Assembly (NCBI RefSeq): GCF_001677475.2
Contig: NZ_CP015229.1
Strand: one strand, 5' to 3'
Length of the DNA stretch: 64,000 nt
Source of the DNA: Escherichia coli
Lineage (GTDB): Bacteria > Pseudomonadota > Gammaproteobacteria > Enterobacterales > Enterobacteriaceae
In this document: one piece after another, positions 2,499-51,289 of the stretch
Layout: every line of letters begins with the position of its first letter
How positions within the stretch are numbered: the first letter of the stretch is position 1
Position numbers and translations under genes: made by a program
The notes under the pieces: model-generated
Database searches by the model: none
Told to the model about the DNA's origin: nothing
What the model saw: only the letters and a program-made list of their open reading frames with translations

Positions 2499-2603
2499 AT
2501 TGTTCACCATTGCAAATGGTCCGTGGTGACTGTCGGCGCAGTAAGCTTCGCGAAATAGATTTAGGAATAAGCGAAGAAAAATCCCTTTGCCGACAGGCGC
2601 AAA

Positions 2604-3266
2604 TTAAATCTCGTCAGGTGTACGCAGGTTGGTTACGGCAATGCGTTCACCGCGCTTGCGTTCGCGCTCTGATTGCATATTGGCGCGATAAACGCCCTGA
2701 TCGCCAACCACCCAGGAGAGCGGACGACGTTCTTTGCCGATAGATTCCTGCAACAGCATCAGTGCCTGCATGTACGCTTCAGGACGCGGCGGGCAGCCCG
2801 GGATATACACATCAACCGGGATGAATTTATCGACGCCCTGCACAACGGAATAAATATCGTACATACCACCAGAGTTGGCACAGGCACCCATTGAGATAAC
2901 CCATTTTGGTTCCAGCATCTGGTCATACAGACGCTGAATAACCGGTGCCATTTTGGTAAAGCAGGTTCCTGCAACCACCATCAGGTCAGCCTGACGCGGC
3001 GAAGCACGCAATACTTCTGCGCCAAAACGCGCCACGTCATGCACCGCGGTAAACGAAGTCACCATCTCAACGTAACAGCAGGAAAGACCGAAGTTATACG
3101 GCCAAATTGAGTTTTTACGACCCCAGTTAACCATGTCATTGAGCTTGCCCATAAACACGTTTTTGTTAACTTCTTGCTCCAGAGGGTCGGTTACGATCTC
3201 CTGCTTTTGCAGGGGGTAACGGTCGTTCTCACCGTTGGGATCTATGCGGGTGAGCGTATAATCCAT
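2604..3266 (-). CDS. nuoB: NADH:quinone oxidoreductase subunit B (4Fe-4S N2)
   Basis: 220-aa ORF with CCxxE...GxCxxxGG...GCPP motif pattern of NuoB. Confidence 0.96.
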
Positions 3267-3281
3267 CTTAATGCCTCGCGG

Positions 3282-3725
3282 TTAGCGTTGACGATTAGCG
3301 ATACTGTTCGTTTCCGGGTTCATACGCTCGCGGCGTGAACGCGCGGGCGTCCAGTCCAGCGCGCCAATACGCACCAGATAAACCAGACCTGCCAGTAACA
3401 CAAAAATAAAAATTGCAGCTTCCACAAAGCCTACCCAGCCGCTTTCGCGGATAGAGGTTGACCATGCGAACAGATACAGTGCTTCAACGTCGAAGATAAC
3501 GAAGAACATGGCCACCAGATAAAACTTGGCGGACAGGCGTAAGCGGGCGGAGCCGACCGAGTCGATACCGGATTCAAACGGCACGTTTTTCGACCTCGCG
3601 CGTGCGCGACCGCCTAAAAACCAACCGCCTACCAGCATCAGGCAACACAGGCCAATGGCAACGATAAGAAAGATAGCGAATGCCCAGTGATGAGCGATGA
3701 CTTCAGTGGATGTTGACATACTCAT
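3282..3725 (-). CDS. nuoA: NADH:quinone oxidoreductase subunit A (membrane)
   Basis: 147-aa hydrophobic ORF, first gene of the nuo operon. Confidence 0.95.
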
Positions 3726-19936: not shown

Positions 19937-19992
19937 CAGAAACAGGTTCTCGTGTATTATTTCATCCTAAGTAAAACAACGGAGAACCTGCA

Positions 19993-20355
19993 ATGGCACA
20001 ACCTGCCGCTATTATTCGTATAAAGAACCTTCGTTTACGTACGTTTATCGGAATTAAGGAAGAAGAAATTAACAACCGTCAGGATATTGTTATCAATGTG
20101 ACGATCCACTACCCCGCCGATAAAGCGCGCACTAGCGAAGATATCAACGATGCGCTGAATTATCGCACTGTAACGAAAAACATTATTCAGCATGTAGAGA
20201 ATAACCGTTTCTCTTTGCTGGAAAAATTAACTCAGGATGTGCTCGATATCGCACGTGAACATCACTGGGTGACGTATGCTGAAGTGGAGATCGATAAACT
20301 GCACGCGCTGCGCTACGCTGATTCGGTATCCATGACCTTAAGCTGGCAGCGTTAA
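19993..20355 (+). CDS. folX: Dihydroneopterin triphosphate 2'-epimerase
   Basis: 120-aa ORF of the FolB/FolX fold ([21 protein letters not shown]). Confidence 0.92.
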
Positions 20356-20375
20356 CCGCCATATCGGGAGGCTGC

Positions 20376-21269
20376 ATGAACATAGTGATCACCGGAGGGA
20401 CGGGATTAATTGGTCGCCATTTGATTCCACGTTTGCTGGAGCTGGGCCATCAAATCACGGTAGTGACGCGTAACCCGCAGAAAGCCAGTTCCGTTCTCGG
20501 CCCTCGGGTGACACTATGGCAAGGGCTTGCCGATCAAAGCAACCTCAACGGCGTTGATGCGGTAATCCACCTGGTCGGAGAACCGATTGCTGATAAACGC
20601 TGGACTCACGAGCAAAAAGAGCGTCTCTGCCAAAGCCGCTGGAATATCACGCAAAAACTGGTCGATTTGATTAATGCCAGCGACACGCCACCGTCGGTAC
20701 TCATTTCCGGCTCAGCAACGGGCTATTATGGCGACTTAGGTGAAGTGGTGGTTACCGAAGAGGAACCGCCGCATAACGAATTTACCCATAAACTCTGCGC
20801 CCGCTGGGAAGAAATTGCCTGCCGGGCGCAAAGTGACAAAACGCGAGTGTGCCTGCTGCGTACCGGCGTAGTGCTGGCACCGGATGGCGGTATTCTCCGT
20901 AAAATGCTGCCGCCGTTTCGTCTTGGCCTGGGCGGGCCGATTGGTTCCGGTCGGCAGTATCTGGCCTGGATTCATATCGATGATATGGTCAACGGCATTC
21001 TCTGGCTGCTCGATAACGAGCTGCGCGGGCCATTTAATATGGTTTCGCCCTACCCGATACGCAATGAACAATTTGCCCATGCGCTCGGTCATGCGCTGCA
21101 TCGCCCGGCCATTTTGCGCGTCCCCGCAACCGCCATTCGGCTGTTAATGGGCGAATCTTCAGTACTGGTATTAGGTGGACAACGCGCGCTGCCTAAACGG
21201 CTGGAAGAAGCGGGTTTTGCGTTTCGTTGGTACGATTTAGAAGAGGCGCTGGCGGATGTCGTTCGCTGA
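20376..21269 (+). CDS. yfcH: NAD-dependent epimerase-family protein (SDR, DUF1731)
   Basis: 297-aa ORF with N-terminal Rossmann motif ITGGTGLIG. Confidence 0.9.
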
Positions 21270-21316: not shown

Positions 21317-22219
21317 TTAGTGGCTTTGCGCGATAAGATCGTCTGGTGAAAGTCGGGTCACCATCATAACTAACTCTCGGTCTAAACCTCTATCCAGCAT
21401 CTCCTGAGCAATACGCAGGGCTTCTTCGCGTTTGCCCAGAATTAATCCATCATTCCGCCCTTCTTCACGTAATCTGTCAGCAATAGTCATCAGTTTCTCC
21501 TTTTCTTGTGGTGCGCGTTCCGCTATCTCACCAATAAATGCACGGAAACGCTGGGCATCTCCCGTTTGTAATACGTAATTAAACAGGGCTTTTAGCTGTC
21601 TGTCATTAGTGTTTCCTGTAACTAGCAGCGAAACAATTTGGTCGACTAATCCCAACAGATCGCGCTGACGAATATGTTTCTGAATTAGCTCCAACAGCGC
21701 CATTTTGCGGTGTTGCATAATCTCGTCATCCGGCACCACGGTAATATCCACCAGCGGAAAAGCCGATGAATAAATTTTGCGGGCAATCGCAGGCTCGGCA
21801 AATTCATCAAGCCAGCAGAGTGAATATGGATAAGGGCTTCTGCAGCCATGATAAAACAGCATCGGGATCACCAATGGAAGCTCTTTATAGCCCGCATCAA
21901 GATGGTTTTGCATTGCCGCAATGGAATAACGCATCATGCGAAAAGCCATTAATTCTTCCAGCTTGCTTTGGTGCTCTATCACTACATAAATATAACCCGC
22001 TCCCTCCTGCGTTTTCACAGACCACAAGAGGTCGGAATAATATTGCCGCAGGTCTTCATCAATAAAACTGTTTGGTTCCAGTTTAAGCGTCGTTAAATCA
22101 CACAGTTTGCGCAGCGGCGCGGGAAGATGAATATCAATAAAATCCCGCGCGGTGTCTGGATGGCGTAAAAAAGATTTAAATACCGCATCATGCGGCGTGG
22201 AAGTTGTCGATATTGTCAT
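21317..22219 (-). CDS. rpnB: Rpn-family recombination-promoting nuclease (PD-(D/E)XK, transposase_31-like)
   Basis: 300-aa ORF with conserved Rpn N-terminus ([23 protein letters not shown]) and VIEHQS motif; former yfcI. Confidence 0.85.
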
Positions 22220-22415
22220 GGCGTTCCGTCACCCCTCAAATTTAAGATGACGCGACAATAACCACGATTAACACCCAATGCAGCAGGCAGTTTTTATCTT
22301 TGGACAGCGAATTCAGAAGTATTTTTAGCGGACTGCAACTTTTACATTTCAGCGGAAGCTGACTCGCAAATTCCCCTTGAAAATACTCCGGCAGCGTTAG
22401 CCACCGGAGAGGAAA

Positions 22416-23189
22416 TTATTTCAGCGATCCCTTAAGGAACTGTTGCAGACGAGGGCTTTGCGGGTTGCCAAATAACTGCTCCGGCGCGCCCTCTTCTTCT
22501 ATTTTCCCCTGATGGAGGAAAATGACGTGAGTAGAAACATGGCGAGCAAAGCCCATTTCGTGAGTCACTACCACCATGGTTTTCCCCTCTTCTGCCAGTT
22601 GCTGCATAATACGCAACACTTCGCCTACCAGTTCAGGATCGAGCGCCGAGGTAGGTTCATCAAACAGTAAAACTTCCGGTTCCATCGCCAGCGCCCGCGC
22701 GATAGAAACACGCTGTTGCTGACCGCCGGAAAGATGCACCGGATATTTCCCCTGCGCACGTTCGTCTATCCCGACTTTCGCCAGATACTTCACCGCCCGC
22801 TCGCGCGCTTCTTGCTTGCTCAGGCCCAACACCTGAATCGGCGCTTCCATGACGTTTTCCAGCACCGTCATATGGCTCCAGAGATTGAAGTGCTGGAATA
22901 CCATCGTCAGGCGTGTGCGCAGTAAGCGCAGCTGATTTTTATCGGCGACTTTGAGTTGACCGTCTTTGTCGCGCACCAGATTGATCGTCTGGCCATTGAC
23001 CACGATCGATCCTTCACTCGGTTTTTCGAGGAAGTTAATGCAGCGCAGAAAGGTACTTTTCCCCGATCCCGACGATCCGATGATGCTTATGACATCTCCG
23101 GCATTCGCTTGCAGTGACACCCCTTTCAGCACTTCATGTTCGCCGTAGCGTTTGTGCAAATCGATAACGTTTAATTTATTCTCGGACAT
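22416..23189 (-). CDS. hisP: Histidine/lysine/arginine/ornithine ABC transporter ATP-binding protein
   Basis: 257-aa ORF with Walker A (GSSGSGKST), ABC signature (LSGGQQQR) and Walker B ([11 protein letters not shown]). Confidence 0.95.
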
Positions 23190-23196
23190 CGTATTC

Positions 23197-23913
23197 TCAG
23201 TGCGTTGAAGAAGGTTTCACATGCTGCAACCAGCGTTTTTCCGCTCTGCGAAAGAGGCTGATCAGGACATAAGAGATGATTAAATAGAGCACCGCGGCAA
23301 TGCCGAAGGCGGTAAAAGGTTGATACGTGGCGGCGTTAATATCGCGGGCTATTTTCAGCAGATCCGGCACAGTGGCCGTAAACGCCAGCGCAGTAGAGTG
23401 CAGCATCAGGATCACTTCGTTGCTGTATGCCGGTAACGCAATACGCAGCGCAGAAGGCAAAATAATGCAGCGATACATTTTAAAGGTCGAGAAGCCATAG
23501 GCTCTGGCGGCTTCAATTTCTCCATGCGGCACTGAACGGATTGCCCCGGCAAAAATCTCGGTAGTGTAAGCGCAGGTGTTAAGCGTCAGCGCCAGCACGG
23601 TACAGTTCAGGCCACTGCGGAAAAAGGCGTTAAGGAACTCGGTTCCCTTAACAATCTCCAGCGTGTACATGCCGGAATAGAACACCAGCAACTGAACATA
23701 CAGCGGCGTACCGCGAAAAATATAGGTAAATAACCAGATTGGAAACTGGATGTATTTATTACTTGAGACGCGACCAATCGCCAGAAACAGCGCCAGGACT
23801 CCGCCTATCACTACCGACAAAATCAGCAGCCACAGGGTGATCGCCACACCAGTAAAGCGATAACCGTCGGTCCACAGCAGTGGTTTCCAGTATTCATGTA
23901 AGATTTCGATCAC
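23197..23913 (-). CDS. hisM: Histidine ABC transporter permease
   Basis: 238-aa membrane ORF; 4-bp overlap with hisQ stop. Confidence 0.94.
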
Positions 23914-24596
23914 AGGTCAGCCCTCTTCACACCCACGGAGTAGCGGCGCTCAAGGAACAGCAGCACACCATTGGAAACGGTGGTGAAAACCAGGTAAATC
24001 ACGCCACAAACGATGGCGAAATAGAACGGTTCCCAGGTACTTTTGCCTGCCAGCTGCGTGGCTTTGACCACATCTTCCAGGCCAAGTAACGAAACCAGTG
24101 CGGTAGATTTAAGGATCACCTGCCAGTTGTTGCCAATGCCTGGCAGGGCGTAACGCATCATCGCCGGAAACATGATCCGCCGAAACACTTGCCCACGAGT
24201 AAAACCGAACGCCGTCGCCGCTTCTATATGTCCTTTCGGCACTGCCATAAAAGCACCACGGAACGTTTCGGTAAAATAAGCACCGTAGATAAAACCGAGA
24301 GTGATAATACCAGCGACCATCGGATCGATATCAATCTGCCCGACGCCCATCGCCTCCGTCACCGTGTTTAGCGCAATCTGCAAACCGTAGAAAATCAGCA
24401 GCATCAACACTAAGTCCGGCACGCCACGAATCAGCGTGGTGTACCCTTCGAAAATCAGCCCCGAAAGCCGATTTTGCGAGAGCTTACCGCCAGCGCCAAT
24501 TAAACCGATGATTACAGCGAGCACTACAGAGCTGATAGCCAGCTCCAGCGTGACGAGCGCACCCTGTAAAATAACACCTGAAAACCCATACAACAT
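23910..24596 (-). CDS. hisQ: Histidine ABC transporter permease
   Basis: 228-aa membrane ORF of the polar amino-acid permease family. Confidence 0.94.
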   Translation of the reverse strand: MLYGFSGVILQGALVTLELAISSVVLAVIIGLIGAGGKLSQNRLSGLIFEGYTTLIRGVPDLVLMLLIFYGLQIALNTVTEAMGVGQIDIDPMVAGIITLGFIYGAYFTETFRGAFMAVPKGHIEAATAFGFTRGQVFRRIMFPAMMRYALPGIGNNWQVILKSTALVSLLGLEDVVKATQLAGKSTWEPFYFAIVCGVIYLVFTTVSNGVLLFLERRYSVGVKRADL

Positions 24597-24625
24597 GCTG
24601 CCTGTCCTGTCGTGTGTGGTGAATT

Positions 24626-24665
24626 CCCGCCTCTTGTCTCCCTCCGGTTACCCGAAGGGAGCGGG
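24626..24665 (-). promoter_or_regulatory. Intercistronic stem-loop between hisJ and hisQ (REP-like mRNA stabiliser)
   Basis: cccgc...ctccctccgg-ttac-ccgaagggag...gcggg inverted repeat read directly in the 89-bp hisJ-hisQ spacer. Confidence 0.6.
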
Positions 24666-24685
24666 CTTTCTTTCACCGATGGCGA

Positions 24686-25468
24686 TTAACCACCATAAAC
24701 ATCAAAATCGAAGTACTTTTTCGCTAATTTCTCGTAAGTACCGTCAGCGCGCATTTCGGCAAAGGCTTTGTTCAGTGCCTCGCGCAGTTCGTTATCTTCT
24801 TTACGCAGGCCCATGCCGGTCCCTACGCCAAACAGTTTTTCATCTTTAACAGACGGGCCACCGAATTTGTAATCTTTACCGACGGGTTGTTTGAGGAAAC
24901 CTTCACTGGCAGCGACCTCATCCTGGAACGCGGCATCAATACGTCCGGCAGTCAGGTCAGAATAAATGTTGTCCTGCCCCTGATAAGAAACGATTTCAAT
25001 GCCTTTTGGTGCCCAATGTTCGTTACCGAACGTCTCCTGGGTGGTGCCCTGCAATACGCCTACCCGTTTGCCTTTCAGCGACTCGACTGTCGGCTGAATA
25101 TCGGAATTTTTCGCCACCACCAGACGAGAATCGGCAGCGTACAGTTTGTCGGTGAAGGCTATTTCTTGCTGACGTTTTTCCGTAATGGAAAGCGATGACA
25201 TGATGGCGTCAATCTTCTTCGCTTTTAAGGACGGGATTAACGCATCCAGCGGGTTTTCGACAAACGTACATTGCGTATTGATGCGCTTGCACAACTCCTT
25301 CGCCAGATCGATATCGAAGCCAACCAGTTCGCCTTGTGAATTTTTTGATTCAAAGGGCGCATAGGTCGGGTCGGTACCGATGCGGATGTTTTGCGGAATC
25401 TCAGCAAATGCCGCAGTTGCGCTGGAGAAGGCCAGAACCAGAGAGAGCGATAGCACCAGTTTTTTCAT
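24686..25468 (-). CDS. hisJ: Histidine-binding periplasmic protein
   Basis: 260-aa ORF with signal peptide; paralogous to adjacent argT. Confidence 0.95.
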
Positions 25469-25688
25469 AATGTCCTCAACTGACAGTCTTTTTATAGGGA
25501 ATATTTACAGGTTTGTTACACTTATCGTGCCATAAAATTGACCATCAAGGCAAAATATCCCGCCCCGTTAGATGTATTATTTTTCATTAAAAATGCTTAA
25601 GTATGCATTTCAATGCACCACGATAGTGCAACAAACCTGGCGTGCACCATGATGATCATTCCATCAGGTACAGCTTCCCAGCGACGTA

Positions 25689-26471
25689 TCAGTCACCGTA
25701 GACATTAAAGTCGAAATACTTTTTCGCCATCTTGTCGTAGGTGCCATCCTGACGCAGCTCGCCAAGCGCCTTATTAAACGCAGCCGTCAGTTCAGCATCA
25801 TCTTTACGTAGCCCTACACCGGTGCCGTCACCGAAGTATTTTTTGTCTTTCACTGATGAGCCAGCAAAGGCGAACTCTTTACCGGCGGGTTGCTTGAGGA
25901 ATCCTTCGCTGGCAGCAACCTCATCTTGTAACGCAGCATCCAGACGTCCTGCAGCCAGATCGGAATAGACCAAATCCTGGTTGGCATAGGCCACCACATC
26001 CACGCCTTTGCTACGCCAGGTCTCGTTAGCGTAAGCTTCCTGGGTTGATCCCTGCAGCACACCCACATGTTTACCTTTCAGTGAATCCAGCGTTGGCTGA
26101 ATCGGTGAACCTTTGGCAGCAATCAAACGAGAATCTGCGGCGTACAGCTTGTCGGAGAAAGCAATCTCCTGCTGACGTTTATCGGTAATGGAAAGCGACG
26201 AAATAATAGCGTCGATTTTTTTCGCTTTCAGTGAGGGAATCAGCGCGTCAAAGTCACTGGCAACCCAGGTACATTTCACCTGCATCCGTTTGCACATCTC
26301 GTTACCGAGATCGATATCAAAGCCAACAAAATCACCTTTAGCATCTTTCGACGAGAACGGCGCATAGGTGGTATCGGTTCCGATACGTACCGTCTCCGGT
26401 AGCGCCGCATAGCTGGAAGCCGCTGCGGAGAGACCGACTAACAAAGACAGAGCGAGAATCGACTTCTTCAT
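25689..26471 (-). CDS. argT: Lysine/arginine/ornithine-binding periplasmic protein
   Basis: 260-aa ORF with signal peptide, about 70 percent identical to hisJ by eye. Confidence 0.95.
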
Positions 26472-26539
26472 ACATAACCCTCAAGTGAAAATGGCTTTTT
26501 TATGTTGTGTATTGTGTTGTGTGTTTGCAGGCTCTTTCA

Positions 26540-26555
26540 TGCAGGTCTTATGCCA
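26540..26555 (-). promoter_or_regulatory. Candidate sigma54 (-24/-12) promoter for argT
   Basis: Minus-strand reading TGGCATaagacCTGCA matches the TGGCAC-N5-TTGCA class with correct GG-to-GC spacing; about 70 bp upstream of argT start. Confidence 0.55.
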
Positions 26556-26736
26556 TCTTGACGACAACAGTAACATTCAACGTTAAATATGTTAATAAGA
26601 CGTTGCATTATTGTCCTGAAGTTGAAGATAGCAGGTATAGCGGTTGAATCGCAGCGTTTCGATTGAATGGCAGAAACAAAATGTCGAGGATTTGATCGCG
26701 GTTGCAAAATTGCCCTGAAACAGGGCAACAGCGGAG

Positions 26737-27306
26737 TTATGCGCCCTGCCAGCGGGCAAAGAGATCTTCAGGAAGCGTTATGGCGAATTGATCGAGTACA
26801 CGGTTAACCGTCTGATTTATCACATCATCAAGGGACTGCGGGCGATGATAAAACGCCGGAACGGGAGGCATAATCACCGCACCGATTTCTGCCGCCTGAG
26901 TCATTAAACGCAGATGGCCTAAGTGCAATGGTGTTTCACGCACGCAGAGCACCAACGGGCGACGCTCTTTCAGCACCACATCTGCCGCACGGGTCAGTAA
27001 ACCATCGGTATAGCTATGGACAATGCCGGAAAGGGTTTTGATTGAACAGGGTAAAATCACCATCCCCAGCGTCTGGAAAGAACCGGAAGAGATGCTGGCG
27101 GCAATATCGCGCGCATCGTGCGTCACATCGGCTAAAGCCTGCACTTCGCGCAGGGAAAAATCCGTTTCGAGGGATAAGGTCTGGCGCGCCGCCTGGCTCA
27201 TCACCAGATGCGTTTCGATATCTGTGACATCGCGCAGAACCTGTAATAAGCGCACGCCATAAATCGCGCCGCTGGCACCGCTGATGCCTACAATGAGTCG
27301 TTTCAT
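26737..27306 (-). CDS. ubiX: Flavin prenyltransferase UbiX
   Basis: 189-aa ORF, N-terminus MKRLIVGISGASGAIYGVRLLQVL. Confidence 0.95.
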   Translation of the reverse strand: MKRLIVGISGASGAIYGVRLLQVLRDVTDIETHLVMSQAARQTLSLETDFSLREVQALADVTHDARDIAASISSGSFQTLGMVILPCSIKTLSGIVHSYTDGLLTRAADVVLKERRPLVLCVRETPLHLGHLRLMTQAAEIGAVIMPPVPAFYHRPQSLDDVINQTVNRVLDQFAITLPEDLFARWQGA

Positions 27307-27400
27307 AAATAGTTGCCCTGTCAGACTTGCAGGCAGACTTTGCAGGATTTCGGCAGGAGTTGCAAGTCAGGGTGCCAGACCGGCACCCTGAGCGAAGGCA

Positions 27401-28918
27401 TCATCCTTCGTTATGCATTTCGAGATTTTCCACTTCGTTCTGACGTTGCACTGCTTTGGCGTCGTCATTACGTAAAGTATCGAGGAAATCGAGGTAGCCC
27501 TGATCAACATCTTTGGTGACGTAGACGCCGTTGAACACCGAGCATTCAAACTGCTGGATATCCGGGTTTTCAGCGCGAACGGCGTCGATCAGATCGTTCA
27601 GATCCTGGAAAATCAACCCGTCAGCACCGATGATCTGGCGAATTTCATCTACTTCGCGACCGTGAGCGATCAGTTCCGTAGCGCTCGGCATATCGATACC
27701 GTAAACGTTCGGGAAGCGAATTTCCGGTGCCGCAGAAGCGAGGTACACTTTCTTCGCTCCGGCTTCGCGTGCCATCTCGATAATCTGCTCAGAAGTGGTG
27801 CCACGGACGATGGAGTCGTCGACCAGCAGGACGTTTTTATCGCGGAACTCGGCGCGGTTGGCGTTCAGTTTACGGCGCACGGACTTACGACGCAGCTGCT
27901 GGCCCGGCATGATGAAGGTGCGGCCAACATAGCGGTTTTTAACGAAGCCCTGGCGGTACGGTTTGCCCAGAATACGAGCAATTTCCAGCGCGATATCACA
28001 CGAGGTTTCCGGGATCGGGATCACCACGTCGATATCCAGATCTTCCCATTCACGGGCAATTTTCTCGCCCAGTTTCGTGCCCATATTCACACGCGCGCTG
28101 TAAACGGAAATTTTGTCGATAAACGAGTCCGGACGGGCAAAGTATACATACTCAAACAGGCACGGATTGCTGACCGGATTGTCAGCACATTGACGGGTAA
28201 ACAACTGCCCTTCTTCAGTGATGTAAATCGCTTCGCCAGGCGCGACGTCACGCAGGAAATCAAAGCCTAGTGTATCGAGCGCAACGCTTTCGGAAGCGAC
28301 CATATATTCTGTGCGGTTCTCGTCAATATCACGTTTTCCCAGTACGAGCGGACGAATCCCGTTAGGATCGCGGAAAGCAACCATACCGTGGCCGATAATC
28401 ATCGCCACACAGGCATACGCGCCGCGGATTAAGCGGTTTGTAGCAGCGATGGCGGCGAAAATGTTGTCGGCTTCCAGCGGGTAGTGGCGGAAGTTGTCCA
28501 GTTCGCTGGCAAAGATATTAAGCAGAATTTCCGAGTCGGAAGTGGTGTTGATGTGGCGGCGTTTTTCTTCAAACAGTTTTTTACGCAACTCGTGAGCGTT
28601 GGTCAGATTGCCGTTGTGGGCAAGCGTAATGCCATACGGGGAGTTAACGTAAAACGGCTGCGCTTCAGAGGCGCTGGAGCTGCCAGCCGTAGGGTAACGC
28701 ACATGACCAATGCCCATATTGCCCTGCAAACGCTGCATATGGCGAGCTTCAAATACATCGCTCACCAGCCCGTTCGCTTTACGCAAACGGAAGCAGTTAT
28801 TGGCATCTATGGTGATGATGCCGGCGGCATCCTGACCGCGATGCTGAAGCACCGTTAAGGCATCATAAATCGACTGGTTAACCGGCATAACACCGGCGAT
28901 ACCGACAATACCGCACAT
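27401..28918 (-). CDS. purF: Amidophosphoribosyltransferase
   Basis: 505-aa ORF beginning MCGIVGI (N-terminal nucleophile Cys). Confidence 0.97.
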
Positions 28919-29604: not shown

Positions 29605-29695
29605 GCGTGTCGGATGCGGCGTAAACGCCTTATCCGACCTACGGTTCTACCCCTGCGTAGGCCTGATAAGACGCGCCAGCATCGCATCAGGCAAG
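29605..29695. repeat. BIME: two inverted REP elements
   Basis: tgtcggatgcggcgtaaacgccttatccgacctac and gtaggcctgataagacgcgccagcatcgcatcaggc read directly between dedD stop and the cvpA promoter. Confidence 0.85.
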
Positions 29696-39030: not shown

Positions 39031-39101
39031 GCCGGAGGCCGCATTGGCGCGTAATGTCGGATGCGACGCTGGCGCGTCTTATCCGACCTACTCCGGCCTA
39101 C
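39031..39101. repeat. REP element(s) downstream of fabB
   Basis: gccggaggccgcattggcgc...gtcggatgcgacgctggcgcgtcttatccgacctac; produces a spurious ORF beginning MSDATLARLIRP. Confidence 0.8.
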
Positions 39102-39107
39102 TGCGAA

Positions 39108-40328
39108 TTAATCTTTCAGCTTGCGCATTACCAGCGTGGCGTTGGTGCCGCCGAAGCCGAAGCTGTTAGACATAACGGTGGTCAGTTCGCGATCGGTCGT
39201 TTCGGTCACGATGTTCAGACCCGCAGCCTGCTCGTCCAGCTCTTCAATGTTGATGCTCGGGGCGATAAAACCGTGTTCCAGCATCAGCAGAGAGTAGATA
39301 GCTTCCTGTACGCCAGCAGCGCCCAGTGAGTGACCGGTCATGGCTTTGGTTGCAGAAATCGCCGGGCTCTTATCGCCGAACACTTCACGGATAGCTGCCA
39401 GTTCTTTCACGTCGCCAACCGGAGTCGAAGTACCATGAGAGTTCAGGTAGTCGATTGGGGTATCAACACCGTGCATCGCCATCTTCATGCAGCGCACTGC
39501 ACCTTCGCCAGACGGAGCAACCATGTCTGCGCCATCAGAGGTTGCGCCGTAGCCAACGATTTCAGCATAGATGTGAGCACCACGCGCCAGCGCGTGTTCC
39601 AGCTCTTCAACCACTACCATACCGCCACCGCCAGCGATAACGAAACCGTCACGGTGAGCGTCGTAAGTACGGGAGGCTTTTTCCGGGGTGTCGTTGTATT
39701 TAGTAGACAGCGCACCCATCGCGTCGAATTCGCAAGCCATTTCCCAGCACAGCTCTTCACCGCCGCCAGCAAACACGATGTCCTGTTTGCCCAGTTGGAT
39801 CTGCTCTACTGCGTTACCGATACAGTGTGCGGAAGTCGCACACGCGGAGCTGATGGAATAGTTAACGCCATGAATTTTAAACGGCGTGGCGAGGCAGGCA
39901 GAAACGCCGGATGCCATCGCTTTGGTGACCACATACGGGCCAACCGCTTTCAGGCCGCGCGGGCCGCGCATTGCGTCAGCGCCGAATACCTGGAAACGCG
40001 GGGAACCGCCGCCGGAACCTGCAATCAGGCCAACGCGCGGGTTATTCTGGTAAGCTTCCGGAGAGAGGCCTGCATCTGCGATTGCCTGCTCCATAGAAAG
40101 GAATGCATAAATGGATGCGTCGCTCATAAAGCGCACAACTTTGCGGTCAATGAGGCCAGTGGTATCCAGTTTTACGTTGCCCCAGACGTGGCTACGCATG
40201 CCGGAATCCTTCAGCTCCTGAGAGAAAGTGATCCCTGAACGTCCTTCACGCAGAGATGCCAGGACTTCCTGCTGGTTATTACCGATGCTGGAAACAATGC
40301 CCAGGCCAGTAATCACTGCACGTTTCAT
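39108..40328 (-). CDS. fabB: 3-oxoacyl-ACP synthase I (KAS I)
   Basis: 406-aa ORF with KAS active-site region ([14 protein letters not shown]) and His-His motifs. Confidence 0.97.
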
Positions 40329-40375
40329 TCAATACCTCTGTAAGTCGCACATAGAGTAAGTTTCGAATGCACAAT

Positions 40376-40393
40376 AGCGTACACTTGTACGCC
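40376..40393. promoter_or_regulatory. Palindrome GCGTACA-ct-TGTACGC in the fabB promoter (FabR-type operator)
   Basis: Inverted repeat read directly about 50 bp upstream of fabB start; resembles the FabR/FadR-controlled region of fabB. Confidence 0.5.
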
Positions 40394-40420
40394 GAACAAG
40401 TCCGATCAGCCAATTAATAG

Positions 40421-42493
<2,073 letters not shown>

Positions 42494-42506
42494 TCAGCTT
42501 TGGCAT

Positions 42507-42606
<100 letters not shown>

Positions 42607-42613
42607 CAACAAC

Positions 42614-42892
42614 TTACTGCTGTGACGCCTGCTGAAACAGGTTTTCCCACATTTCGGTAACCAGCGCCTGGTCACGCGGCGACAATTCACCGGCGCCAAT
42701 GGCTTTTTCTAGACTCTGGCTAACGGTTGTATGCACCGCCTGGGCGGAGTGGTCATCACCACTTTCCAGTTCTGCGATGGCTAATGTCAGGTGGCCACGC
42801 AAATACCCACTGGCAAACAACTCATCATCACTGGCATGGTCAACCATACCGTCGATTAATGCCAGAATGCGTGATTCAAACTCCGCGATCAT
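42614..42892 (-). CDS. yfcL: Small protein YfcL
   Basis: 92-aa ORF at the 3' end of the aroC-containing operon. Confidence 0.85.
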
Positions 42893-42925
42893 CTTCTTTC
42901 CTCATTGTAAAACGTGGCGCTGGCT

Positions 42926-43474
42926 TTAGTTGAGCGCTTCCGGCCACGGGAACTGTTCCGCCGTAAGTTCCGGCGTGTGATAATAATTTTGTAATGCTTT
43001 AATGAAGCGTGCCGGGCGTTCAGGAATGCCGTTTTCCAGATAATCCATCACCTGCGCATATACCCGCCGTTGAAACACCACGCGATCCGGTTCGAAATCC
43101 CCTTCCAGATTGTCGCAACTGACGTTAAACGGATATCCCGCCGCCACGCAGAACAACCAGTCCAGCGCCTGCGGCTTCACTTCAACATCTTCAAACTGGC
43201 TTTGCGTTTGGGCATCGCGTCCGTCCGGGCAATACCAGTAGCCGAAATCAACCAGTTCACGGCGCGCTTTCCCGGCAATACACCAGTGCGAAATCTCATG
43301 AATTGCGCTGGCATAAAAACCATGAGCAAAGACGATTCGGTTATACGGTACTTCCGCATCAGCAGGAAGATAGATCGGTTCGTCGTCGCCTTTAATCAGA
43401 CGGGTATTAAATTCATCGGCAAAGCAGCTATTAAAAATTTCAATCAACTGCTCATAGTGGTGTGTACTGTTCAT
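42926..43474 (-). CDS. epmC: Elongation factor P hydroxylase
   Basis: 182-aa ORF (former yfcM); HxxxE-like metal-binding region. Confidence 0.87.
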   Translation of the reverse strand: MNSTHHYEQLIEIFNSCFADEFNTRLIKGDDEPIYLPADAEVPYNRIVFAHGFYASAIHEISHWCIAGKARRELVDFGYWYCPDGRDAQTQSQFEDVEVKPQALDWLFCVAAGYPFNVSCDNLEGDFEPDRVVFQRRVYAQVMDYLENGIPERPARFIKALQNYYHTPELTAEQFPWPEALN

Positions 43475-44283
43475 TAGTTCATCCCCAACCAGTGGAGGAT
43501 CTCCTGTCCGTGGCTATCATAAAGTAATTTGGCACTCATCACCGCCGATACAATAACGATCATCGGGCGGATCAGCTTTTGTCCTTTGCTCAACACCAGT
43601 CTTGAACCCATGCGCGCGCCGAGGAACTGCCCCACCAGCATGACAAAGCCCGTCGCCCAAATCACTTTACCGCCGAGAATAAACAGCAGCAGACCGCCAA
43701 TGTTTGACGTTGCGTTGAGTAATTTGGCGTGAGCCGTGGCTTTGGCGAGGTTGAATCCGCACAGCGTAACGAAGGCCAGCGCGTAAAACGATCCGGCAGC
43801 CGGGCCAAAGAATCCGTCATAAAAACCGACGCAGCCACCGGCAATTAACGCGAAGGGTAAACCGTACATCCGGCGCTGGCGATCTTCTTCACCCAGCTTT
43901 GGCATCAGCAAGAAATAGAGGCCGATACAAATCACCAGAATGGGCAAAATCTGCCGTAAGACATCAGCCTGAACATACTGCACCAGCAATGCGCCGCTCA
44001 TTGAGCCGACAAAGGTCATGGCGATATTGAGTTTCTGATCGCTTAAACTAACCACTTTGCGGCGAATAAAGTAGATAGTGGCGGAAATAGAGCCGCCGCA
44101 GGCTTGCAGTTTATTGGTTGCCAGCGCGTTAGCGGGAGACATCCCCGCCGCCATCAATGCCGGAATAGTGAGTAACCCACCGCCACCGGCAATCGAGTCG
44201 ATAAATCCCGCCAGCATGGCGACAAAAAAGAGAACTCCCAGCAACAGCGGGGAAACCATAAACAGGCTATTAAACGTTTCCAT
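43474..44283 (-). CDS. yfcA: TauE/SafE-family membrane transporter
   Basis: 269-aa polytopic ORF; start/stop overlaps with both neighbours. Confidence 0.9.
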   Translation of the reverse strand: METFNSLFMVSPLLLGVLFFVAMLAGFIDSIAGGGGLLTIPALMAAGMSPANALATNKLQACGGSISATIYFIRRKVVSLSDQKLNIAMTFVGSMSGALLVQYVQADVLRQILPILVICIGLYFLLMPKLGEEDRQRRMYGLPFALIAGGCVGFYDGFFGPAAGSFYALAFVTLCGFNLAKATAHAKLLNATSNIGGLLLFILGGKVIWATGFVMLVGQFLGARMGSRLVLSKGQKLIRPMIVIVSAVMSAKLLYDSHGQEILHWLGMN

Positions 44284-45107
44284 TAGATCACGTGCTCATC
44301 CAGTAGCGCCTGGCAGGAAGGCGGCAACGGAGGCGGTGTCTTCTTCTCAGGCTTTGTTGTTCCCGGTTTTGGAGGTTCAAACCAGCTTTGCAGTTCTGCC
44401 CCGCAACCATCGCCCGGTGGCGGTAAAGGTTGATCTTCACACTCCAGACTATCGGCAGGGCAACGTAATCGTACATGCATATGCGCGCGATGCTGGAACC
44501 AGGGTCGCACTTTGCGCAACCAGTCGCGATCGGTACCCGCATCAAGGCAAAGTTGTTGTTTAATCGCCGGATTAACAAAAATGCGCGTGACGTCTTTGTC
44601 CTGGGCGGCGAGTTTGATCAAGCTGAAAATTTCTGGCTTCCACAGCGTGGAGACAACGTGTTTACCGTCGCGGGAAACTAAGTCCAGTGCTTGCGGGCGC
44701 AAAAGTTGCGCGGAGGTCCAGCGTGTTTTCGGCAGTTGCAGAAAGATATCGACATCCAGTCCGGTCTGGTGGCTGGCGTGACCGCCGTTGAAACGACCAC
44801 CAGCAGGCATCCCCATATCGCCAATCAGCACCGTGCCCAAGCCCAGATTGCTCACCTGGCTACTCAGACGCTGGATAAACATCACCAGATCCGGGTGACC
44901 GAAATAGCGACGCTGATCGGTACGCATGACCTGATAATGTTCGGACTGTATCGGCAGCGTGTCAGCACCGACGATACAACCATTAGAAAAACTGCCTATC
45001 GATTGTGCGCTACCCGGCACAGGTTGGGTTATTTTTTGCCACGGCGTCGCTGCCAGGCTGGCGCTACTGGCAAGCAGGGCCAGCAGCGCAATCGCGGTTT
45101 TGTTCAT
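44283..45107 (-). CDS. mepA: Penicillin-insensitive murein DD-endopeptidase
   Basis: 274-aa ORF with signal peptide and zinc-peptidase motifs ([17 protein letters not shown]). Confidence 0.93.
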
Positions 45108-45110
45108 TTT

Positions 45111-46196
45111 TTACCAGCGTGGAATATCAGTCTTCACATCGGCATTTTGCGCCCGCTGCCGTAGCAGGTGATCCATTAAAACGATCGCCAGCATCGCTTC
45201 AGCGATCGGCACCGCGCGGATCCCGACACAGGGATCGTGACGGCCTTTGGTGATCATCTCAACTTCTTCGCCAAAGCGGTTAATGGTACGCCCCGGCACG
45301 GTTATGCTAGAGGTCGGTTTCAGCGCCATATGGGCAATGATTTGCTGCCCGCTGCTGATACCGCCGAGAATGCCGCCCGCATGGTTGCTCTGGAAACCGT
45401 CTTTGGTGATTTCGTCGCGGTTCTGGCTGCCGCGCAGCGCCACCACGTCAAAACCGTCGCCAATTTCCACGCCTTTCACCGCGTTGATGCTCATCAGCGC
45501 ATGGGCGATGTCGGCATCCAGGCGGTCAAAGACCGGCTCGCCAAGTCCGGCAGGAACGCCACTGGCAACAACGGTGACTTTCGCGCCGATGGAGTCGCCC
45601 TCTTTTTTCAGCGCACGCATCAACTCGTCTAACGCGTCGATTTTGTCCGGGTCCGGGCAGAAGAACGGATTTTGCTCGACCAGCGACCAGTCTTTGATTT
45701 CCAGCGGAATGTCGCCCATCTGGGTCAGGCAACCGCGAATCTCAATGCCAAATTTCTCGGCGAGATATTTTTTGGCAATCGCCCCTGCTGCAACGCGCAT
45801 AGCGGTTTCACGGGCGGAAGAACGTCCACCGCCGCGATAATCGCGCAGACCGTATTTTTGTTCGTAGGTGTAATCGGCATGGCCTGGACGGAAAACGTCC
45901 TTAATCGCACTATAATCCTGAGAACGCTGGTCGGTATTTTCGATCAACAAGCCAATGCTGGTGCCAGTAGTAATGCCTTCAAAAACACCGGAGAGGATTT
46001 TGACCTGATCCGGCTCACGACGCTGGGTGGTATAGCGCGATGTCCCAGGGCGACGACGATCAAGGTCATGTTGCAGGTCCGCTTCCGTCAGCGGAATGCC
46101 TGGCGGAACACCATCGACGATGCAGCCGAGCGCCAGCCCGTGCGATTCGCCGAAAGTGGTTACGCGAAAGAGTTGTCCAATTGTGTTTCCAGCCAT
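45111..46196 (-). CDS. aroC: Chorismate synthase
   Basis: 361-aa ORF from the second ATG ([20 protein letters not shown]). Confidence 0.96.
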
Positions 46197-46230
46197 CACG
46201 GCTCCGTTATTGTTGTGTTTGCGTGTTTAC

Positions 46231-47163
46231 TTAATCTTTATAAATCGCGAAATGTTCTCGTGCGGCAATAAGCTGCTCTTTGGTGAGCATAAACACACCA
46301 TCGCCGCCGTTATCAAACTCCAGCCAGGTGAACGGAACATCCGGATATTGTTCCATAAGATGTACCATGCTGTTGCCGACTTCACAAATCAACACGCCAT
46401 CATCAGCAAGGTAATCTGCCGCGTTACCGAGAATGCGACGCGTCAGTTTCAGGCCGTCGGTGCCAGATGCCAGGCCCAGTTCCGGCTCGTGACGGTACTC
46501 ATTTGGCAGGTCGGACATATCTTCCGCATCGACATACGGCGGGTTAGTGACAATCAGGTCGTACTGCACTTTCGGCAAGTCGCGGAACAGATCGGATCGA
46601 ATCGGAATGACGTTATGGATCAAACCGTGTTCTTCGATGTTCTGTTCGGCAACCGCCAGCGCGTCGGGAGAGATATCCACCGCGTCGACTTCCGCTTCCG
46701 GGAAGGCATAAGCGCAGGCAATGGCAATGCAGCCGCTGCCAGTGCACATATCCAGAATATGCTGCGGTTGTTTGCTGATGAGTCCTGCAAATTTATTGTT
46801 GATCAGTTCACCAATCGGCGAGCGCGGAACCAGTACGCGTTCATCGACGAAAAATTCGTGACCGCAGAACCAGGCTTTGTTAGTCAAATAGGCCACCGGA
46901 ATGCGTTCGTTGACGCGGCGGATCACGCGCTCAACAATACGGTGTTTTTCGCTGGAGGTCAGGCGGGCGTTACGCATATCTTCCGGAATATCCAGCGGCA
47001 GATAGAGCGATGGCAATACCAGTTGCACTGCTTCGTCCCACGGGTTGTCTGTGCCGTGACCGTACCAGATATTTGCCGCGCTGAAGCGGCTAACCGACCA
47101 GCGCAACATGTCCTGAATGGTTTGCAGCTCATTTACTGCTTCATCGACGAAAATTTTATCCAC
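46231..47163 (-). CDS. prmB: Ribosomal protein L3 glutamine N5-methyltransferase
   Basis: 310-aa ORF with SAM-binding DMCTGSG and the NPPY motif. Confidence 0.93.
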
Positions 47164-47328
47164 GTATTCCTCCAGGGCATGGTCGCATTAATTTCGGCGG
47201 CTAGTTTGCCATGAAGATGACGATAAATCAGCATTCACGCGGCGATGACGCAGGAAAATTATGTTTTGACCGATCGATTGTGCTGCGAGTCGGGTAAACT
47301 GTAGGAAAATTAAAACAGAGATACATAA

Positions 47329-47880
47329 ATGAAAAAGAAAACAACACTCAGCGAGGAGGATCAGGCACTGTTTCGCCAGTTGATGGCGGGTACTCGCAAA
47401 ATTAAGCAGGACACGATTGTCCATCGTCCACAACGAAAGAAAGTCAGCGAAGTGCCGGTCAAGCGGTTGATTCAGGAGCAGGCGGATGCCAGCCATTATT
47501 TTTCCGATGAGTTTCAGCCGTTATTAAATACCGAAGGTCCGGTGAAATATGTTCGCCCGGATGTGAGTCATTTTGAGGCGAAGAAACTGCGCCGTGGCGA
47601 TTATTCGCCGGAGCTGTTTTTGGATCTGCATGGTCTGACGCAACTTCAGGCCAAACAAGAGCTAGGCGCGTTGATTGCCGCCTGCCGCCGTGAACATGTA
47701 TTTTGCGCCTGTGTGATGCATGGTCACGGGAAGCATATTTTGAAGCAGCAAACGCCGCTGTGGCTGGCGCAACATCCGCATGTCATGGCGTTTCACCAGG
47801 CACCGAAAGAGTATGGTGGCGACGCGGCGTTGCTGGTGTTGATTGAAGTGGAAGAGTGGCTGCCGCCAGAATTGCCCTGA
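47329..47880 (+). CDS. smrB: Smr-domain ribosome-rescue endonuclease
   Basis: 183-aa ORF with C-terminal Smr domain (LDLHGLT...HGHGKHIL). Confidence 0.9.
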
Positions 47881-48100
47881 ATGACAACAACCGGATATAG
47901 AATTTGCAGGTCGGATAAGATGCGCCAGCATTGCATCCGACAAGAAATGCCGGATGCGGCGTGAACACCTTATCCAGCCTACGCAAGACTGAATGACAAC
48001 AACCGGATATGGAATTTGTAGGTCGGATAAGATGCGTCAGCATCGCATCCGACAAAAAGTGCCGGATGCGGCGTAAACGCCATATCCTGCCTGGGCGCTA
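47881..48100. repeat. Tandemly duplicated BIME block (2 x about 112 bp, each with an inverted REP pair)
   Basis: Units starting atgacaacaaccggatat at 47881 and 47993 align end to end with a few substitutions; each contains ggtcggataagatgcg...gcatccgac and gccggatgcggcgt... Confidence 0.85.
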
Positions 48101-48964
48101 CAGCATATTCAATACATACTGGAATCGGCAGGTGGAGTCTATGGGCTGCCTGCTACTGGTATCAACACGTACTAACATATCGTGCAGTTGTCGATCGGTA
48201 ATAGGGTGCTGCGTTGGCGCCACAGTCACTTTAGCGTCATCACATCCTTCAGCAGTAAAGGTAATCAACTGATTTACAAAGCGACAATACGCGCCGCGTT
48301 CATCCATTTTACTGCCATCGCAGAGCTGACCATCTTTCATCAGGTAGGTCGATAAGTTTTGTTCAATCACTGACCCTGTTGATTTCAGATTCAAAACCTT
48401 ACTGTGTTCAACACGGCTGTCACTCCAGGAGATATCATAATTTGTTAATGGCTCACCTGGGCAGGTTGTTGTATAGGTTGTAGGCCCCCTATAATATTCA
48501 ACTCTCGGTTGATAATTATAATATACAGTATCAGTACTGTTCGCCGTCATCCCCACCATCCACGGACACGTCTCTGCCGAACCGTTGACCTCTATGGTCA
48601 TGACAACATCGGAGCATCTCCAGTTGAAATTGGGATCAATCTCTTTAACACCCGGACAATGGGAATCTTGTGTATAATCGCTCGAGCGGACTGTGATTTT
48701 GGGGGCTGGAATATTTCCCGGCCCGGTCCATGAATGATTAGGAAGATCCCCATACTTGACGCCATGGTCGGTATTTTGATAGTACACCCCATGATAAACC
48801 CCATTGGTAGTGAGTAAATCAAGGTAGAATTGAAGCGTTGCATTTCCGGCAATCGTACCATAGTAGACTGTCACATTATTATAGACTGCCCCCAGTTTCG
48901 CCTGAGCTCCCTGGCTAAAGAACAGCACCAGCATGGCGCAAAGCAGTAATCGTATTTTTTTCAT
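48098..48964 (-). CDS. yfcO: Fimbrial-operon-associated exported protein (DUF2544)
   Basis: ORF with signal peptide MKKIRLLLCAMLVLFFSQGAQA; start chosen at 48962-48964 (ORF track allows 48979). Confidence 0.78.
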   Translation of the reverse strand: MKKIRLLLCAMLVLFFSQGAQAKLGAVYNNVTVYYGTIAGNATLQFYLDLLTTNGVYHGVYYQNTDHGVKYGDLPNHSWTGPGNIPAPKITVRSSDYTQDSHCPGVKEIDPNFNWRCSDVVMTIEVNGSAETCPWMVGMTANSTDTVYYNYQPRVEYYRGPTTYTTTCPGEPLTNYDISWSDSRVEHSKVLNLKSTGSVIEQNLSTYLMKDGQLCDGSKMDERGAYCRFVNQLITFTAEGCDDAKVTVAPTQHPITDRQLHDMLVRVDTSSRQPIDSTCRFQYVLNML

Positions 48965-48965
48965 C

Positions 48966-49505
48966 TTATATATACTCAAAGGTTGCCGTCAGGTTGGCGG
49001 TAAAATCACCGAGCGTGACATCGCGACCGCTTTTCGCCTGCAGCCAGGCCCTGAAATGAATATCATTACTTCCATCGCTGAGCGTAAATTTCGCCCCTGT
49101 CGGGTTGTTAATTGCCACCCGCACACCATCGATCGTTTCCATCCCAATTCCGACGCCCTGAGCGGTTGAAGTGGTATCCAGCGCGAGGAAACCCGGCTGT
49201 TCGCTGTCTTCCGTACCGGTAAGGGTCACCTGCACCTGGTAACTCGCCGGCCCCTTGCAATCTTTTAGCTTAAACACCACCGGAACGTGCGGGGATTCCC
49301 CTGCGACCATAAGATCCTGACGACTGATGGCAGGAAAATGCACTTCTGCCAGATTTCCGCCATCAACCACCAGCGTGCAGGAACGGCTTAATAAGTTGCC
49401 TGAAAAATGCAGGTTGTTATCCACGGCCAGGGCACAAGTGCCACCGGTCAACAGCAGCCCCGCTAACAGCGCGTAGCCGAACGAATAAATGCGTCCTGTC
49501 TTCAT
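48966..49505 (-). CDS. yfcP: Fimbrial-like subunit
   Basis: 179-aa ORF with signal peptide and fimbrial subunit Cys pair. Confidence 0.85.
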   Translation of the reverse strand: MKTGRIYSFGYALLAGLLLTGGTCALAVDNNLHFSGNLLSRSCTLVVDGGNLAEVHFPAISRQDLMVAGESPHVPVVFKLKDCKGPASYQVQVTLTGTEDSEQPGFLALDTTSTAQGVGIGMETIDGVRVAINNPTGAKFTLSDGSNDIHFRAWLQAKSGRDVTLGDFTANLTATFEYI

Positions 49506-50502: not shown

Positions 50503-50517
50503 AAGACTCTCCCGGCA

Positions 50518-51270: not shown

Positions 51271-51289
51271 GGATCATTCCTTAATCACG

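Follow-up and report, generated by a model that had tools for sequence, protein, structure and literature searches.

The argT-hisJQMP gene cluster

We examined the argT-hisJQMP locus in a stretch of 64,000 nucleotides of Escherichia coli DNA (the window). The genes and other features of this region are listed in Table 1. All five products (ArgT, HisJ, HisQ, HisM and HisP) scored above the curated NCBIfam cut-offs, and an identical gene order with identical names is annotated in K-12 and in further E. coli records. An earlier, sequence-only reading of this region had described HisJ and ArgT as paralogous proteins of 260 residues that share the HisQMP membrane components, and both parts of this description held. 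Pairwise alignment of the two proteins was gap-free over 259 residues (67% identical, 83% similar, E = 3e-133). HisJ reached 596.6 bits with its own equivalog model (cut-off 459) and ArgT 582.8 bits (cut-off 440), and each failed the model of the other (432.1 vs 440 and 423.8 vs 459, respectively). In the RefSeq record of K-12, hisQ, hisM and hisP are each assigned as subunits to two transporters, one for lysine/arginine/ornithine and one for histidine, and HisJ and ArgT have been described as 70% identical and as both associating with HisQMP2 (PMC6640053).

At the DNA level, hisJ and argT were 68% identical, with only 43% identity at third codon positions and a longest identical run of 14 nt, and in each of the 77 related loci whose flank was long enough to show it, argT preceded hisJ. 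The low third-position identity, the short identical runs and the constant gene order point to an old duplication; judged from these sequences, there is no sign of recent gene conversion.

Table 1. Features of the argT-hisJQMP region, by position in the window
Feature	Position	Strand	Basis
Terminator-like hairpin with U-rich tail 3' of hisP, operon end	22386-22409	minus	terminator scan
hisP, ATP-binding subunit	22416-23189	minus	NF007908, 577.6 bits (cut-off 466)
hisM, permease subunit; 4-nt overlap with hisQ	23197-23913	minus	NF011651, 464.7 bits (cut-off 306)
hisQ, permease subunit	23910-24596	minus	NF011714, 479.1 bits (cut-off 319)
hisJ-hisQ intercistronic spacer, 89 nt	24597-24685	minus	ORF bounds; RNA fold
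CA-rich tract and weak Shine-Dalgarno before hisQ AUG; predicted GcvB R1 seed pairing site	24598-24622	minus	duplex prediction; PMC9299463
Outer helix, 3' arm GCGGG	24626-24630	minus	MFE structures; genome comparison
A-rich 3' bulge ACAAGAG, 7-8 nt, between inner and outer helices	24631-24637	minus	MFE structures
Inner hairpin CUCCCUUCGG-GUAA-CCGGAGGGAG, 10 bp including one U-G; 4-nt loop at 24648-24651	24638-24661	minus	RNA folding
Outer helix, 5' arm CCCGC	24661-24665	minus	MFE structures
hisJ, histidine periplasmic binding protein, 260 aa	24686-25468	minus	ORF; NCBIfam equivalog NF011965
argT-hisJ spacer, 220 nt, hisJ control region	25469-25688	minus	fold, inverted repeat, motif matches
Long-range inverted repeat in argT-hisJ spacer	25508-25522 / 25625-25639	minus	repeat search
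Sigma-54-like motif in argT-hisJ spacer	25517-25532	minus	match to presumed consensus, lead only
NtrC-type dyad in argT-hisJ spacer	25614-25630	minus	match to presumed consensus, lead only
argT, lysine/arginine/ornithine periplasmic binding protein, 260 aa	25689-26471	minus	ORF; NCBIfam equivalog NF011586; annotated in E. coli records
argT leader	26502-26555	minus	sigma-54-like TGGCATAAGACCTGCA (26540-26555, presumed consensus) and CA-rich tract (26502-26526)

The spacer between argT and hisJ folded as RNA at -73.2 kcal/mol (z = -5.1). Its motif matches, and that in the argT leader, are leads only, obtained with presumed NtrC and sigma-54 consensus sequences. Transcription of argT from a sigma-54/NtrC promoter has been reported (PMC9299463, PMC6640053), and argT is a verified target of the small RNA GcvB (PMC9299463). 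The hisJQMP genes have their own sigma-70, ArgR-regulated promoter, for which ArgR boxes have been described (PMC6640053).

A bulged stem-loop in the hisJ-hisQ spacer

A strong imperfect palindrome had been noted at positions 24626-24665 within a hisJ-hisQ spacer of 89 bp. The spacer indeed measures 89 nt, and the palindrome coordinates delimit exactly an inner hairpin and an outer helix, which together form a stable structure lying past the hisJ stop codon and ahead of the hisQ start codon. On the plus strand the palindrome reads CCCGC / CTCTTGT / CTCCCTCCGG / TTAC / CCGAAGGGAG / CGGG. The single DNA mismatch of the inner stem is a U-G pair in the mRNA, so that the stem has 10 uninterrupted pairs; the inner hairpin alone folded at -18.6 kcal/mol and is the structure drawn in the S6 table of Dar and Sorek (PMC5927463). 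The two arms of the outer helix pair over 5 bp. Position 24626 of the window, the last G of the 3' arm, is a U in all E. coli genomes compared, and the outer helix of the window is one base pair longer than in all of them.

Folding was compared with 200 dinucleotide-preserving shuffles of the mRNA (minus) strand. The whole spacer reached -34.4 kcal/mol (shuffles, -22.6 +/- 2.9; z = -4.0) and a 51-nt core -28.0 kcal/mol (shuffles, -14.8 +/- 2.6; z = -5.2), and in neither case did any of the 200 shuffles fold as well. The sequence-only reading would have been refuted had the spacer folded no better than its shuffled controls, and this check did not refute it.

Conservation of the hairpin in Enterobacteriaceae

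One genome per species was used to build a comparative set of 80 Enterobacteriaceae loci, and the hisJ-hisQ spacer was taken from each. All 80 spacers folded into a hairpin. REP motifs, scanned for with a consensus that is presumably correct (...CTTATCNGGCCTAC), were present in 16 of them (Salmonella and 14 Citrobacter species); the other 64 spacers had unique hairpins, and the same search gave no REP match in these. In 60 of the 65 REP-free spacers (including that of the window) a stem ran for 8 bp or more without interruption, compared with 5.8% of shuffles. We used this count in place of whole-spacer z-scores, which were modest for many orthologs (median -2.4), because C and G runs re-pair easily in dinucleotide shuffles. 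A search for the best single hairpin added weak outer pairs, making the distances to the stop codon and to the AUG unusable as a statistic.

The sequences of the stems were highly diverse. There were 32 distinct stem arms among the 65 REP-free spacers, and at least seven unrelated sequence types of stem were distinguished in the 80 species. These included CUCCCUUCGG in Escherichia, CCCCUCCC in Enterobacter, Lelliottia, Kosakonia and others, CCAUCGCGCGC in Klebsiella/Raoultella and CCCAUCGNNNCG in Kluyvera, with further types in Pseudocitrobacter, Pluralibacter, Atlantibacter and Superficieibacter. In a MAFFT alignment of 32 spacers from Escherichia to Enterobacter, the inner stems were out of register, and the alignment was legible only for covariation of the outer helix and for part of the inner helix; covariation was therefore tested on the separate, cleanly aligned Klebsiella/Kluyvera set. 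The 12-bp helix of Klebsiella, Raoultella and Kluyvera had 93.8% of cells paired, with 6 of the 12 pairs changed on both sides. Its covariation score was reached by none of 500 shuffles, and slid controls had 26-53% of cells paired. In the 32 aligned spacers, two pairs of the outer helix switched between the Enterobacter and Escherichia types (U-A to C-G and G-C to C-G), and a RAAAGA-type bulge was retained throughout. These compensatory changes lend indirect support to a role of the structure in stabilization.

Published mRNA decay data and the probable function of the hairpin

The sequence-only reading had proposed that the palindrome stabilizes the upstream mRNA and gives higher expression of the binding protein than of the permease. 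Published data agree with both proposals. Dar and Sorek (2018) reported hisJ-hisQ as a differential-decay pair in E. coli in which hisJ is stabilized, with a steady-state hisJ:hisQ mRNA ratio of 5.83 +/- 2.81 and a half-life ratio of 3.72 (given without standard deviation) in their own data, but of only 1.39 when recomputed from the independent Moffitt 2016 data (PMC5927463). More generally, type I binding proteins occur in 10- to 200-fold excess over their transporters (PMC12094219). Dar and Sorek treated argT-hisJQMP as one operon (PMC5927463); the separate hisJ promoter (PMC6640053) leaves the comparison of hisJ with hisQ unaffected. The proposed mapping of transcript 3' ends is also available from their work, in which the term-seq 3' end of the stabilized hisJ segment lies at genome position 2419431 of E. 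coli BW25113 (PMC5927463). An exact match of the sequence upstream of this end (...CCGGAGGGAGACAAGA) placed it at window position 24632 on the minus strand, 6 nt past the inner stem and within the A-rich bulge. A literature search for further 3'-end data sets mentioning hisJ found none.

The hisJ-hisQ element is one of 26 entries in the E. coli table of protective hairpins of Dar and Sorek (PLoS Genet 14:e1007354), and does not differ in kind from the rest. Common features are a stable hairpin within an operon, no U tract, a 3' end directly after the structure and greater stability and abundance of the upstream gene. However, the hisJ-hisQ hairpin is intergenic, whereas 17 of the 26 entries lie within the downstream coding sequence (PMC5927463). 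As in malE-malF, these structures were interpreted as blocks to the 3'-to-5' exonucleases that act once the mRNA has been cut downstream (PMC5927463). In the account of Newbury et al. 1987 given in that paper, malE-malF has an intercistronic REP stabilizer in E. coli. Both operons have the binding-protein gene first and the permease genes next, with a 3' structure that blocks, or in hisJ-hisQ would block, exonucleases after the cut; the malE-malF structure is a REP, whereas that of Escherichia hisJ-hisQ is not.

We consider it very probable that the hairpin is a single-copy, 3'-protective exonuclease barrier that prolongs the life of the hisJ segment. The polycistronic argT-hisJQMP or hisJQMP mRNA would be cut somewhere downstream of the hairpin, and 3'-to-5' exonucleases would digest back and stall a few nucleotides past the inner stem, whose 10 bp are GC-rich. 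The segment with hisJ (and that with argT-hisJ) would then outlive the hisQMP segment, leaving more binding-protein mRNA than permease mRNA. We looked in the literature for a mutational test of the E. coli hairpin and found none. The case for a causal link is drawn from correlation and from the parallels with malE-malF and the Salmonella REP; from these we infer that the hairpin is the cause of the stabilization and that PNPase or RNase II is the enzyme blocked. That an mRNA-protecting hairpin lies at hisJ-hisQ is correct, was already known and is nothing new about E. coli.

Two observations go beyond such a barrier. First, the RNA 3' end lies inside the bulge, which implies that the stable species is without the outer helix, and simple exonuclease blocking does not account for the conservation of this helix. 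Second, a roughly 6-fold difference in mRNA is too small to account alone for a 10- to 200-fold protein excess; control of hisQ translation, including repression by GcvB, must therefore contribute.

A hairpin of this kind could also act as a partial terminator or attenuator, at which a fraction of RNA polymerase stops so that hisQMP is transcribed less than hisJ. Intrinsic terminators likewise combine a strong GC-rich stem-loop with an RNA 3' end shortly past it, and the C-rich, G-poor tract that follows at 24610-24622 could in principle load Rho. However, the sequence after the stem (GACAAGAGGCGGG / GACAAGAGGCGGGAAUUC) lacks a U tract, the RNA ends within an A/G-rich bulge 6 nt past the stem, and transcription runs on into hisQMP. 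At least four U in the 8 nt past the structure were found in only 3 of 64 REP-free orthologous spacers. A scan for consensus promoters and terminators was silent at the hairpin and reported only the hisP terminator. Dar and Sorek left operons with an intrinsic terminator, or with Rho termination already known, out of their set and found neither a U tract nor bicyclomycin-sensitive (Rho) termination at their protective structures; the difference they measured was one of decay rate, an effect that termination would not have (PMC5927463). Partial termination is therefore an unlikely source of the asymmetry. As an intrinsic terminator proper the hairpin was rejected, with no U run 0-2 nt after the GC-rich stem and no call by the scan.

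A GcvB site between the hairpin and hisQ

The 25 nt that precede the hisQ AUG (CACCACACACGACAGGACAGGCAGC) were more conserved than the hairpin, and their CA-rich tract was kept across genera. Using a hisJ-hisQ intraoperonic reporter, Miyakoshi et al. (2021) found that GcvB represses hisQ via its R1 seed, and the GcvB-hisQ interaction is also supported by RIL-seq and MAPS interactome data (PMC9299463). Prediction of duplexes with full-length GcvB by RNAduplex gave meaningless end-to-end pairing, and the R1 region alone was used instead. The predicted R1 duplex at 24592-24637 had an energy of -24.1 kcal/mol, compared with an operon median of -14.4 kcal/mol for 40-nt windows. Ten such windows, mostly in the argT leader, outscored the hisQ site; the best predicted R1 site of the operon was the CA-rich tract of the argT leader, with a duplex of -37 kcal/mol. 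Similar to the R1 targets in the argT, dppA and oppA leaders, hisQ has a CA-rich sequence (CACCACACACGACA) just 5' of its ribosome-binding site, with predicted R1 pairing and reporter verification (PMC9299463). The usual targets are 5' leaders of primary transcripts, whereas the hisQ site is intraoperonic and lies directly past a protective hairpin. On reading the sequence, the Shine-Dalgarno of hisQ was only AGGA and that of hisJ was GAGGA. A weak hisQ Shine-Dalgarno fits the need for control beyond the approximately 6-fold mRNA difference. Repression of hisQ by GcvB at the CA-rich tract and weak ribosome-binding site would form a second layer, separate from decay.

The main role of the hairpin could be translational, either uncoupling hisQ from hisJ or placing the CA-rich tract for GcvB/Hfq, with stabilization as a side effect. 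GcvB repression via the spacer (PMC9299463), the better conservation of the tract between hairpin and AUG, the conservation of an outer helix and bulge that are absent from the stable 3'-processed species, and the shortfall of the 6-fold mRNA difference against the protein excess are all in line with this possibility. Against it, Klebsiella, Kluyvera and other genera differ completely in hairpin sequence and spacer length, and only the layout of hairpin plus leader is kept. We regard a mainly translational role as very unlikely. Such a role is compatible with an exonuclease barrier, and the two explanations are not exclusive.

REP elements in Salmonella and Citrobacter

A REP pair is said to have been found in the hisJ-hisQ spacer of Salmonella typhimurium by Higgins et al. 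in 1982 and by Stern, Prossnitz and Ames in 1988. In the REP-bearing species of our set, a REP doublet of approximately 120 nt occupies the place of the 24-nt inner hairpin of Escherichia. These species retain the flanks AAAGCCC and AAAGAGGC and the entire leader to the hisQ AUG, including its CA-rich part, and the flanks are invariant within the REP-bearing clade. The Salmonella and E. coli elements thus share operon, spacer and flanks, as well as a 3' end past the structure, which in Salmonella lies directly past the second REP; the hisJ:hisQ mRNA ratio is 4.77 +/- 0.47 in Salmonella (PMC5927463), similar to that in E. coli (4.8 vs 5.8). The difference is that the Salmonella element is a dispersed repeat, whereas that of E. 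coli is unique and REP-free. The unique 24-nt inner hairpin was also present in four Citrobacter species (loci L011, L015, L016 and L024). As the CCCCUCCC-type hairpin is common to genera of the Enterobacter clade, the unique hairpin would most simply be the older form, in whose place the REP doublet came later. The first-described REP, that of Salmonella hisJ-hisQ, may have replaced the apex of an older, bulged two-tier hairpin and inherited its existing function. The mRNA asymmetry is similar with a REP doublet and with a unique hairpin, in keeping with the idea that at such sites a REP and any stable hairpin can substitute for each other. This comparative result is of modest interest for specialists in RNA decay and repeat elements.

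The REP motifs in the orthologous spacers of Salmonella and 14 Citrobacter species, together with REPs elsewhere in the window, also raise the question of whether the E. coli palindrome itself belongs to a dispersed repeat family, REP/BIME or another mobile palindrome like it, and is present because such repeats spread and not through local selection. Of 5,426 complete E. coli genomes searched for the 61-nt element (E <= 10, 11-nt words), 5,425 had it, differing at no more than 2 of the 61 nt; it occurred at a median of one place per genome and at two at the highest. In E. coli TUM14697 the hairpin is interrupted by ISEc13. No REP motif was matched in 24597-24685, against nine elsewhere in the window, and a search with Rfam covariance models over 22000-27500 (E <= 1) gave no match. 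In K-12, no repeat feature is annotated at the spacer. Homologous CCCCUCCC/GGGAGGGG hairpins occupy the equivalent site in Enterobacter, Lelliottia, Kosakonia, Leclercia and other genera. An origin as a dispersed copy is hardly credible, and membership of the hairpin in the REP family was ruled out by copy number and motif. The idea that the palindrome is a functionless chance feature of a GC-rich spacer draws on nothing beyond the general frequency of short palindromes, and its probability is close to nil given the shuffle results, the hairpins with compensatory changes in 80 of 80 species and the RNA 3' end mapped at the hairpin (PMC5927463).

A possible module of hairpin and small RNA site

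The exonuclease barrier remains our preferred explanation, and its position next to the GcvB site suggests a further possibility. GcvB/Hfq bound at the CA-rich tract, 10-35 nt past the hairpin, may block hisQ translation and trigger cleavage there, and the hairpin may halt the resulting 3'-to-5' decay, such that the small RNA lowers the shared permease while HisJ is spared. We propose tentatively, at somewhat less than an even chance, that hisJ is shielded by the hairpin when GcvB sets off the decay of hisQMP, and that the stabilizer site taken over by the Salmonella REP was there before it. If this is true, the hairpin and the GcvB site would be one module for sRNA-driven differential decay within an operon. 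The closeness of the hairpin to a verified GcvB site suggests a simple way for a small RNA to confine its repression to the distal genes of an operon.

The hisJ-hisQ locus is a textbook case of one operon whose binding protein is made far in excess of the membrane transporter. Across the 80 species of Enterobacteriaceae, selection keeps a hairpin at this site, and its sequence has been replaced repeatedly.

Predicted structures and regulatory motifs in the argT-hisJ spacer and argT leader

The 220-nt argT-hisJ spacer (25469-25688) had a predicted fold of -73.2 kcal/mol (z=-5.1). A long-range inverted repeat in this spacer flanks the hisJ control region, and its arms, which reach approximately 20 nt in the predicted fold, overlap two candidate motifs, a sigma-54-like element and an exact NtrC-type dyad. 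In an argT read-through transcript, the repeat would form a long hairpin. Citrobacter and several further genera also carry inverted repeats at this position, but with different sequences. The argT leader contained a further sigma-54-like candidate. In addition, a 25-nt CA-rich tract in this leader (26502-26526) gave the top predicted duplex with the R1 seed region of GcvB in the operon (-37 kcal/mol), which fits with argT being a verified target of this sRNA (PMC9299463).

Features in and around the argT-hisJ-hisQ-hisM-hisP operon and elsewhere in the window
Feature	Coordinates	Position or relation	Basis
Long-range inverted repeat	25508-25522 / 25625-25639	argT-hisJ spacer	
Candidate sigma-54-like motif	25517-25532	overlapped by inverted-repeat arms	motif match
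Candidate NtrC-type dyad, exact	25614-25630	overlapped by inverted-repeat arms	motif match
Candidate sigma-54-like motif TGGCATAAGACCTGCA	within 26502-26555	argT leader	motif match
10-bp terminator-like hairpin with U-rich tail	22386-22409	3' of hisP	
Terminator-like and second hairpins	22340-22409	3' of hisP	
rpnB counterpart, minus-strand ORF	21317-22219	adjoins hisP	
folX-yfcH pair	about 19990-21269	just upstream in window	
REP clusters	29629-29670, 39078-39101, 42532-42567, 47906-48031	elsewhere in window	motif match

The operon end and other elements in the window

Downstream of hisP, the terminator-like hairpin was followed by a second one, and the predicted fold of both combined was -30.8 kcal/mol (z=-3.7). 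The adjoining 300-aa ORF is the counterpart of rpnB (recombination-promoting nuclease) and, as called, is slightly longer than the gene annotated in K-12 (891 nt, 296 aa). Like hisJ-hisQ, the nearby folX-yfcH pair is listed in the published tables of differentially decaying operons (PMC5927463). There, folX is stabilized; the half-life ratio is 2.15, and the 3' structure is weak at -10.6 kcal/mol. Nine REP motif matches were detected in the window (0.8 expected); the clusters listed in the table are probably BIME-type elements of other intergenic regions.

Sequence divergence and the outer helix of the hisJ-hisQ hairpin

No exact match of the window was found among complete E. coli genomes. 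The top identity to these genomes was 98.9% over 24400-25700 and only 92% over 40000-52000 (the yfc fimbrial region), and identity to K-12 was 97.9% over 6.3 kb. At 24626, the end of the outer helix, the mRNA has G, versus U in all 5,425 of 5,425 E. coli genomes compared, and thus a fifth outer-helix pair is gained. One GTDB "E. coli" representative (L004) likewise has G at this position.

REP doublets and an insertion at the site of the hisJ-hisQ hairpin

In Salmonella and many Citrobacter loci (L008-L010, L012-L014, L017-L023, L025-L027), a REP doublet occupied the position of the inner hairpin, with conserved flanks on both sides. These spacers were 138-190 nt long and variable in sequence within the doublet; one Citrobacter locus (L014) had a shorter version with one REP motif match. 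In another locus, labeled C. freundii (L057), the spacer was 289 nt long and resembled the Atlantibacter type. In E. coli TUM14697 (NZ_CP128888.1; L084, positions 1838-3486), the IS4-like element ISEc13 was located inside the apical loop of the hairpin, at a site corresponding to about 24646-24655 of the window. The sequence TCGGGTAACC was duplicated, with one copy on each side of the element, and the hairpin arms were approximately 1.5 kb apart owing to the insertion, which is a natural disruption of the hisJ-hisQ structure.
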